Part shown: positions 11,232-11,850 of the stretch, one piece after another
Numbering within the stretch: the stretch's first letter is position 1
Layout: each line of letters starts with the position of its first letter
Virus record (IMG/VR): IMGVR_UViG_3300031419_000581
DNA from: a virus
Taxonomy: Duplodnaviria; Heunggongvirae; Uroviricota; Caudoviricetes
Reading direction: 5' to 3' (one strand)
Length of the DNA stretch: 64,000 bases
Notes under the pieces: generated by a model
What the model was told of the DNA's origin: nothing
Database searches by the model: none
What the model saw: the letters and a program-made list of their open reading frames with translations, nothing else
Program-made: the position numbers and the translations under genes

Positions 11232-11239
11232 AGTTAATT

Positions 11240-11266
11240 AACTCTCCCTTATGGGGGAGTTTTTAT
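11240..11266 (+). terminator. Rho-independent terminator
   Basis: actctccc-ttat-gggggagt hairpin followed by a T-run. Confidence 0.65.
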
Positions 11267-11287
11267 TATGGAGTTTTGACAGGTTTA

Positions 11288-11316
11288 TAAAAAAATAAAG
11301 AGGTCTTTCGACCTCT
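11288..11316 (-). terminator. Terminator-like hairpin oriented for the minus strand
   Basis: agaggtc-tttc-gacctct 7-bp stem. The A-run on the plus side equals a T-run on the minus strand. No annotated minus-strand gene ends here. Confidence 0.4.
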
Positions 11317-11432
11317 TAAAATTTTAAATTTTTATAAACTGAGACTACGTTTATAACGTTGCTTCTTTTGACAGAGATTGTCATAATTACTGCGTTAGTA
11401 AAATTACAGTAATTTGGCCTCTATCGTATCCA

Positions 11433-11462
11433 CTTTGAAGTAAAGCAACACGACCGCATTTA
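11433..11462 (+). promoter_or_regulatory. Sigma32-like (heat-shock) promoter candidate, about 390 nt upstream of clpP
   Basis: cTTTGAAg, then 14 nt, then CCGCATTTA, compared with the consensus CTTGAAA-N13-15-CCCCATnT. Confidence 0.35.
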
Positions 11463-11787
11463 TCAAGGTCCTGCATTTGACCTGTCATATATTGCTACTC
11501 AACTTATCATAATCTGTTATTCCAGTTATTAATATGTGTTATATCAGCATTATGTAAATCAACTGATTAAAAATCAGACTCGGTTTATCCAAGTTTTAGG
11601 TCGCTTTATCACAATATACCGCCGCGCACGGCAAAATCGTAAATGTTTATTTTATTATTGTTGAAGGGTTTTATTATGAATTGTATTAATAGTGTACTTT
11701 TATAAGGTAACAATGAAGAACTGTCAATGGTCTTCTCTAAAAAATGTCTAATAAGTAAGCAAACGAATGAATTATAAAATAAAGTTC

Positions 11788-11817
11788 TTGCAAAGAAAAA
11801 AAGAACTACGCTATAAT
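11788..11817 (+). promoter_or_regulatory. Sigma70 promoter candidate for clpP (TTGCAA-N18-TATAAT)
   Basis: TTGCAA at 11788-11793; TATAAT at 11812-11817. Confidence 0.5.
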
Positions 11818-11850
11818 AGCGCCATGTTGAACAATAAAAGGAAAGTAAAT

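Follow-up and report, generated by a model that had tools for sequence, protein, structure and literature searches.

GOLLD RNA (Rfam RF02032) was reportedly described by Weinberg et al. in 2009. Its usual setting is a phage or prophage, in or near transfer RNA (tRNA) arrays, and to our knowledge no function has been established for it since 2009. Cryo-electron microscopy has shown that GOLLD builds cages made only of RNA, whose ring comes from the 3′ domain and whose cap comes from the 5′ domain (Kretsch et al. 2025, PMC12286853). A further report (PMC12990946) describes an engineered 3′ domain of the Streptococcus agalactiae GOLLD (P14-P27, 375 nt, PDB 9LMF), states that the isolated 3′ domain assembles in vitro, mainly into decamers, and assigns the in-plane contacts of the decamer to the P14/P15 loops (L14-P21′ and L15-L20′). 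Here, we have analysed a 64,000-nt stretch of DNA (IMG/VR record IMGVR_UViG_3300031419_000581, hereafter the window) and propose that its gap at 11232-11841, which is bounded by an ankyrin-repeat gene (9471-11231, plus strand) and clpP (11842-12435, plus strand), very probably holds a stand-alone, compact variant of GOLLD, a highly structured RNA of ~400 nt on the minus strand. A compact GOLLD variant of this kind, lacking both the cap and P14/P15, would be new.

The initial annotation had singled out the gap as the longest intergenic stretch and as a possible small RNA (sRNA) locus. The map of open reading frames (ORFs) agrees that 11232-11841 is the longest ORF-free gap of the window; it measures 535 bp by that map and 610 bp when counted to the real start of clpP at 11842 (the product matches Pfam CLP_protease at E=3e-89). 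The stretch is not GC-richer than its surroundings, as had been thought, since GC content is 0.29-0.345 over 11200-11800 but 0.36-0.43 across the ankyrin gene and 0.38-0.50 across clpP. The minus-strand terminator that had been noted is present (stem 11317-11298, T-run 11297-11289), and terminator-like sites in 10800-12700 number 9, compared with 1.0±1.0 in shuffles. This orphan terminator does mark a non-coding RNA locus; what does not hold is the idea of a typical small regulatory RNA, as the RNA is ~400 nt long and structured.

Covarying helices of a minus-strand RNA gene

Relatives of the locus fall into two clades. Close relatives syntenic with the window are L017 (ClpP 98% identical), L018 (91%) and the short L019, in which the gap from the ankyrin gene to clpP is ~575 bp. 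The second, more distant clade, which was reached by way of a second ClpP lineage and of a conserved 156-aa protein whose gene lies downstream of clpP, consists of L022, L024 (with L026, L027 and L028 near-identical to it) and L029; it has two tandem clpP genes with a ~600-bp gap upstream of them. With nhmmer, homologues of the RNA were found at 8 further loci, which add 5 distinct sequences and all of which are oriented divergently from clpP. Complete copies stand in the ~600-bp gap upstream of clpP in L017, L018, L022, L024, L026 and L029, and partial copies upstream of clpP in L019, L027 and L028. A megablast of the locus against phage and plasmid records gave no match, and none of the exact 20-22-mers taken from the conserved blocks occurs in the viral, metagenome or genome contigs searched. 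The core (11290-11640) of the window and that of L018 are 77.6% identical, one hypervariable stem included, and the third codon positions of the neighbouring genes are 52-64% identical. The leader and promoter are 63.7% identical between the same two sequences and are conserved only among the close relatives.

The elements of the predicted gene, in the order of the RNA, are as follows; "both-side changes" denotes base pairs in which both partners differ among the sequences.

11722-11727, minus strand: −35 hexamer TTGACA, invariant in the window, L017 and L018 (alignment A3).
11699-11704, minus strand: −10 hexamer TATAAA, 17 nt from the −35 hexamer and invariant in the window, L017 and L018.
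11289-11692, minus strand: predicted transcript of the compact GOLLD-like RNA, ~400 nt, based on a promoter and a terminator on one strand.
11634-11692, minus strand: A/U-rich 5′ leader, apparently unstructured.
11620-11633, minus strand: P1 hairpin UGCCG-UGCG-CGGCG, which is GCUCU...GGAGC in the second clade; both-side changes in 4/5 pairs.
11612-11619, minus strand: 5′ strand GUAUAUUG of a P17-like long-range helix, pairing with 11487-11494.
11599-11604, minus strand: P2 5′ strand GCGACC, pseudoknotted with 11450-11455; G-C covaries to A-U, and 100% of cells are paired.
11578-11594, minus strand: P3 hairpin, 100% paired; by position only, at the place of the GOLLD hairpin at Rfam model 161-186.
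11563-11577, minus strand: P4 hairpin, both-side changes in 4/6 pairs, some of them within the close clade; at the place of the GOLLD hairpin at Rfam model 187-213.
11499-11562, minus strand: P5 long hairpin, whose large apical region carries conserved UGAUAYAACA; 16 pairs, 7 with both-side changes; at the place of the GOLLD P21 domain.
11487-11500, minus strand: GAGUAG, then the 3′ strand CAAUAUAU of the P17-like helix; the Rfam GOLLD consensus has GAGUA before the 3′ strand of its long-range helix.
11466-11483, minus strand: P6 hairpin AGGUC-AAAUGCAG-GACCU, corresponding to GOLLD P22; 100% paired, 2 pairs with both-side changes.
11450-11455, minus strand: P2 3′ strand GGUCGU, corresponding to GOLLD 'Gucac' in J22/23.
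11358-11449, minus strand: P7 (11443-11449 with 11358-11364), corresponding to GOLLD P23 and enclosing P8 and P9; both-side changes in 6/7 pairs.
11427-11441, minus strand: P8 hairpin ACU-UCAA-AGU, corresponding to GOLLD P24, then GGAUA, corresponding to J24/26.
11370-11425, minus strand: P9 hypervariable long hairpin, corresponding to GOLLD P26; both-side changes in 4/5 basal pairs.
11333-11355, minus strand: P10 hairpin with 9-nt loop GUAGUCUCA, corresponding to GOLLD P27/L27 (consensus GUAaUCUCA) and placed on L27 by cmscan.
11289-11317, minus strand: intrinsic terminator AAGAGGUC-GAAA-GACCUCUU plus UAUUUUUUU, its stem conserved in the close relatives.

A comparative alignment had been suggested as a check on the locus, and it reveals a conserved minus-strand RNA gene with covarying helices. 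The six distinct sequences were aligned by hand to fit the structure, and N was entered for gaps when the pairs were counted (A4). Ten helices and the terminator comprise 74 pairs, and 86 pairs are supported when the pseudoknots are counted. Over the 74 pairs and six sequences, 98.6% of the paired cells can pair, compared with 79.3±1.6 in shuffles (0/500 reaching it), and the pseudoknot helices are also 98.6% paired. Both-side changes occur in 39/74 pairs, compared with 25±2.3 in shuffles (again 0/500) and 6-9 in controls with slid partners; the covariation score is 0.603 against 0.247. Compensatory changes are found within clades as well, in P4, P5, P6, P7, P8 and P9. The P17-like helix has 8 bp, with 97.9% of its cells paired and 2 pairs with both-side changes. 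Entire helices differ between the clades; P7, for instance, reads GUUGCUU/AAGCAAC, GUCAAUC/GAUUGGC or AUCAGCC/GGUUGAU. P9 differs in sequence and length in every lineage; it includes the inverted repeat aattactg/cagtaatt (11385-11392 / 11407-11414), which the initial annotation had recognised at coordinates 2-3 nt away. P10 has both-side changes in 5/7 stem pairs and a nearly invariant loop. While the helices change, the junctions and loops AUUGYGAUAAAGC, CCUAAAACUUG, GAGUAG, AAAUG(G)C, AGUGGAYA and GUARUCUCA stay near-invariant, a pattern typical of RNAs with a defined tertiary fold.

Two other pairings were tried and rejected. A long-range pairing of AUUGUGAU with the P10 loop, proposed by RNAalifold, does not covary, unlike the local P10 and the pairing of its loop with J24/26 (L27:J24/26). 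An early idea of a J1:L10 pseudoknot likewise showed no covariation and was replaced by the same two elements.

Several observations identify the minus strand as the RNA. The structural alignment contains 43 G-U cells, which on the other strand would be A·C mismatches, and the folding z-score against shuffles is −4.87 for the minus strand and −2.41 for the plus strand. The hexamers of the promoter are invariant while the 17-nt spacer between them varies among the window, L017 and L018, as would be expected of a functional promoter of the sigma70 type. This promoter stands back-to-back with that of clpP, and transcription would start near 11692. At the other end, the terminator of the second clade occupies an equivalent position on the RNA strand but is another, GC-rich hairpin (ACCCCUC-UCCG-GAGGGGU plus a U-run). 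The stem of the terminator is identical in the window, L017 and L018, but its loop (11306-11309), read on the RNA strand, is GAAA in the first and the reverse complement, UUUC, in the other two, as if the loop had been flipped.

A coding origin was considered next to these data. The gap might be a decayed pseudogene, such as a tig remnant, or might harbour genes for small proteins, and short ORFs do exist in it, for example one of 33 aa (11488-11387, minus strand). None of the ORFs, however, is common to all six distinct sequences; that of 33 aa is cut short in L017, has a frameshift in L018 and is rejected as a gene. Neither did we find DNA similarity in E. coli genomes, and the substitutions take the form of compensatory base pairs. 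We therefore see hardly any likelihood in a coding origin.

The initial annotation had further noted a match to a sigma32-like promoter, and the gap could alternatively be cis-regulatory DNA or a long clpP leader driven by this promoter on the plus strand (11433-11462). The sigma32 consensus has CTTGAA at −35 and CCCCATNT at −10, and the match, cTTTGAAg (11433-11440)-N14-CCGCATTTA (11454-11462), is present as written. It is not conserved: L017 has TTTTCA and L018 has GTTATC in place of the −35 half, and the second clade (L022) lacks the match altogether. Moreover, it lies 390 nt from clpP, within the RNA gene and in the variable loop of minus-strand P8, whereas the G-U pairs, the promoter and the terminator all indicate the minus strand. 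The gene clpP has a promoter of its own, TTGCAA-N18-TATAAT at 11788-11817, as had been annotated; it is 25 nt upstream of the start codon and its hexamers are conserved. We reject the sigma32 promoter because it is not conserved, and a regulatory role of the gap as DNA or leader is extremely improbable.

Known classes of RNA other than GOLLD were also considered. Transfer-messenger RNA (tmRNA), RNase P RNA, signal recognition particle RNA and 6S RNA were dropped, as no defining motifs, repeats or neighbouring genes were found for them. A CsrB-like sponge, a retron, a ColE1 RNA II-like primer and type I/III toxin-antitoxin RNAs were dropped for the same lack.

Resemblance to the GOLLD 3′ domain

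An Rfam scan of the region had been suggested as a check. A search of the whole window at gathering scores found nothing; local matches to GOLLD emerge once the search is confined to a few hundred bases. In such searches the window (11505-11336, minus strand) matches RF02032 with 36.2 bits (E=1.6e-8, model 279-416), L022 with 28 bits (E=1.1e-5, model 304-415) and L029 with 25.6 bits (E=6.8e-5), all on the RNA strand and in one register. Since the match appears only at this scale, routine annotation with Rfam at gathering scores will miss such variants.

The match is centred on the terminal module P23-P27 (UAC..GUGGAuA, AAAG and the L27 loop), which cmscan places in the same register in the three sequences and whose helices covary. 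P7 is aligned to GOLLD '(((.(((' and UACU..AGUGGAUA to GOLLD UAC..GUGGAuA, and AAAAG of the window RNA matches GOLLD AAAG. In L022, cmscan placed P22 on GCCAGA/AAUGGC; we replaced this by UGGUC/GACCA, which fits the consensus 'AgUGgU' and covaries. In GOLLD, L27 pairs with P23 and J24/26 (PMC12286853). The exact L27:J24/26 pairs given here are those of the present analysis and not of the published structure: GGAU (11428-11431) pairs with GUCU (11342-11345) in the P10 loop, and GGAU:RUCU is 100% paired in the family. The fourth of these pairs is U-G, U-A or C-G in the window RNA family, C-G in the GOLLDs of the Caulobacter phage CcrBL9 and the Brevundimonas phage Bajun, and, by eye, A-U in env-38.

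To extend the comparison, the full Rfam consensus was derived by aligning to the phage GOLLDs of CcrBL9 and Bajun, which score 119 bits (L031, 1091-1506, minus strand) and 104 bits (L030, 1085-1503, minus strand), respectively. Both are in the published GOLLD alignment, and both fall below the 150-bit cut-off, so that standard annotation misses them. The Bajun GOLLD adjoins a permuted tmRNA and tRNAs.

By eye, the remainder of the window RNA maps collinearly on GOLLD P17-P27, two pseudoknots included. The CAAUAUAU that follows GAGUAG pairs upstream with GUAUAUUG, as the strands of P17 do. P2 (GCGACC:GGUCGU) corresponds by eye to GOLLD 'gugaC' in J17/18 and 'Gucac' in J22/23, two segments that can pair with each other in CcrBL9 and Bajun as well as in the Rfam consensus; the flanks are alike, being GAAAG...CUAAU in GOLLD and GAUAAAG...CUAAAA in the window RNA. 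P3, P4 and P5 match the three GOLLD hairpin domains (P18-P21) by position only. P6 corresponds to P22, with AgUGgU... in the consensus and GAGUGGUC... in the window.

A bridge between the window RNA and GOLLD is offered by L032 (IMG/VR contig IMGVR_UViG_3300025438_000014), which was found by a motif pattern from the window RNA family. Its RNA lies in a tRNA array, the classic GOLLD setting, with tRNA-Trp (4793-4864) immediately upstream of the P17-P27 core and, ahead of tRNA-Trp, ~1 kb without ORFs of at least 80 aa. Judged from its sequence, the region 3800-5200 looks like a full GOLLD. Two consensus elements are present in L032, the CGCAA loop and AAAGCGAAAGACU (consensus AAAGCAAAAGUCU). The contig has GGUAUAUUGU and GAGUAGCAAUAU in common with the window, identical 10- and 12-mers at both P17 strands, and its P2-equivalent segments are complementary (GUGCU:AGCAC). 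After an A-rich run, it also has a loop-to-downstream pairing as in P6 of the window, where the loop GCA (11472-11474) can pair with UGC (11456-11458); this pairing becomes GCCA:UGGC in the second clade, by a correlated insertion, and GCC:GGC in L032. A model built from the 3′ half of the window RNA family (R1) matches L032 with 36 bits (E=3e-8), a match that is partly by construction, since L032 was chosen by motifs of that family.

We would like to point out several observations that weigh against assigning the RNA to GOLLD. All matches to the Rfam model are local and far under the gathering score of 150 bits, and GOLLD was not listed in a search with 751 nt of the window, nor for L018 and L024. 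The model R1 missed the GC-rich GOLLDs of CcrBL9 and Bajun. The mapping of P1-P5 onto GOLLD was made by eye, and L032 was selected with motifs of the window RNA family. The structural alignment is a manual one, and since most of its changes split just the two clades, the independent events are few. The setting differs from the usual GOLLD context as well: ARAGORN detects no tRNA in the 64-kb window, and there is no phage hallmark family among 20 proteins scanned. Finally, in the syntenic L021 (SRR25400098; 5504-8056) the ankyrin gene and clpP are only 141 bp apart and no copy was found in the 15 kb examined; in that lineage the RNA is therefore dispensable or has moved elsewhere.

These points lend some support to the view that the RNA is real, structured and on the minus strand yet unrelated to GOLLD, its terminal module (GUGGAUA, AAAG and the GUARUCUCA loop) having arisen by convergence or chance. 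Scores of 25-36 bits against a gathering score of 150, a reciprocal search that failed on two accepted phage GOLLDs and an atypical genomic context are what such a view would predict. It does not explain why three separate matches, with E from 1e-8 to 7e-5, agree in register and are all on the correct strand, nor why collinear features lie outside the match, namely GAGUA with the P17 3′ strand, the helix between GAAAG and CUAAU, and the three hairpin domains (by eye). The L27:J24/26 pair covaries across the window family and the GOLLDs, and L032 has identical 10- and 12-mers at the two P17 strands. We judge an unrelated RNA to be quite improbable and favour a compact variant of GOLLD.

Neighbouring genes and the replicon

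The RNA remains linked to clpP and to the gene for the 156-aa protein across clades that are otherwise rearranged. The latter protein, an orphan encoded at 12489-12959 on the minus strand, is convergent with clpP, shares a bidirectional terminator with it and is kept beside clpP in both clades and in L021. The protein (family P0121-P0127) has no Pfam or PHROG match and is not in IMG/VR; it could be a partner of ClpP. The terminator that the initial annotation had placed after clpP is this bidirectional one, at 12451-12478, and the absence of clpX is borne out in that no ClpX-like protein was found among the ORFs scanned. On the other side of the RNA gene, the ankyrin gene has an extra plus-strand terminator (11240-11261), carried by an insertion of ~33 bp that is specific to the window. 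The ankyrin gene of L017 and L018 is directly followed by the terminator hairpin of the RNA gene, and this hairpin may act in both directions.

ClpP itself is 82-86% identical to Enterobacterales ClpP, and a few proteins of SRA assemblies are closer, while nearly everything around it is orphan or highly divergent. The tandem clpP genes of L022 (10545-11761) reach only ~60% identity with their best named matches, which come from Vibrio, Pseudoalteromonas and uncultured Pseudomonadota. Such a pattern suggests separate acquisitions or very uneven evolutionary rates.

Scans against PHROGs and Pfam gave no assignment of the replicon to phage or plasmid, and a literature search on the replicon type returned nothing. 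It is rich in orphans, and many of the scanned proteins have no Pfam match. Its ribonucleotide reductase is very divergent (25% identity to any phage reductase), and its Suv3-like helicase (19608-21890) has its best phage match, at 30.6% identity, in the 440-kb Salicola phage SCTP-2. A HerA-like ATPase, an IscA-like protein, ankyrin proteins, Dcm, an SPFH protein and thymidine kinase are also encoded. The window is rich in genes of protein quality control, with ClpB (29586-32174), FtsH (22078-24081), ClpP, the SPFH protein and a Cpx-like module. The last is an envelope-stress arrangement at 42257-45586 on the minus strand, in which a CpxP-like protein (LTXXQ), an OmpR-type response regulator and a HAMP histidine kinase stand in a row. 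Other long ORF-free gaps, by a rough ORF map, are 37752-38256 (505 bp), 269-724 (456 bp) and 40790-41062 (273 bp), in which Rfam found nothing at gathering scores.

Possible role and comparison with known systems

How the RNA could be made and folded may be pictured as follows. Transcription would most likely proceed from the sigma70-type promoter back-to-back with that of clpP and end at the terminator at 11317-11298. The transcript would fold into a core homologous to P17-P27 of the conserved GOLLD 3′ domain, comprising a long-range helix that closes three hairpin domains, a crossing helix that makes a pseudoknot, a P22-like hairpin and the terminal P23-P27 module. The last loop of that module, GUAGUCUCA, would pair with the GGAUA linker. 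By analogy with GOLLD, the RNA is expected to act as a stable folded scaffold and not by base-pairing with mRNAs or by regulating clpP in cis. It may also self-assemble, a prediction on which we lean slightly to the negative side because P14/P15, which make the in-plane contacts of the solved decamer, are missing here. It is rather unlikely, but conceivable, that the RNA is a natural autonomous minimal core that works without cap, P14/P15 or tRNA, and that its linkage with clpP reflects a functional tie to protein quality control.

If such a minimal core did work alone, it would have an activity of its own and would not be only a part of the wall of a cage. A natural core of ~400 nt would mark the part of GOLLD that evolution keeps when all else is removed. 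The family would also come to include a replicon of bacterial type, whose promoters are E. coli-like, whose terminators are intrinsic and whose ClpP is Enterobacterales-like, and which has no tRNA in 64 kb. Moreover, the compact RNA would provide a small construct for tests of assembly and function.

Among known systems, the enterobacterial Hfq-dependent sRNAs resemble the window RNA in that each has a gene to itself, whose promoter is of the sigma70 type and whose intrinsic terminator has a U-tail. One could thus take the RNA for a trans-acting sRNA of the Hfq type that pairs with mRNAs, and its own promoter, the long U-tail of its terminator and an A/U-rich stretch before the terminator fit this idea. 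Hfq-dependent sRNAs, however, are typically 50-250 nt long with a conserved single-stranded seed, whereas the window RNA has ~400 nt and is almost wholly structured; its ten covarying helices, pseudoknots and invariant junctions leave no obvious conserved single-stranded seed, and it matches GOLLD. A trans-acting sRNA of this type is very unlikely, and a compact GOLLD variant remains the reading we prefer. ROOL is another large, phage-associated and cage-forming RNA, but it is unrelated to the window RNA in both sequence and fold, and no Rfam match to ROOL was found.

The engineered S. agalactiae construct is similar to the window RNA in that it is a GOLLD 3′ domain of similar length without the cap domain. 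It is, in contrast to the window RNA, an artificial truncation that keeps P14/P15, and since these are absent from the natural window RNA, the same assembly cannot be assumed.

Compared with GOLLD itself, the window RNA lacks the 5′ domain (P1-P13, ~400 nt). From P1 of the window RNA to the start codon of clpP there are ~200 nt holding two conserved divergent promoters (280 nt in the second clade), so that there is no room for a 5′ domain of ~400 nt. It also lacks the P14/P15 hairpin with its CAAAA loop and the A-rich linker with AAAGCAAAAGUCU between the promoter and P17, where only an A/U-rich leader and the 5-bp hairpin P1 are found. Unlike GOLLD, it has its own promoter 58 nt before this small new hairpin, its total length is ~400 nt compared with 700-830 nt, and it sits beside clpP in an orphan-rich replicon with no tRNA adjoining or inside it. 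Like GOLLD, it has P24 closed by UAC..GUG, the GGAUA linker, a variable P26, AAAG, and the 9-nt L27 GUARUCUCA that pairs with the linker. Shared, too, are a long-range P17, which encloses three hairpin domains and whose 3′ strand comes after GAGUA, a P22 hairpin, and a second crossing helix flanked by GA(U)AAAG and CUAA, and the span from P17 to P27 is 287 nt in the window RNA and ~304 nt in L032.

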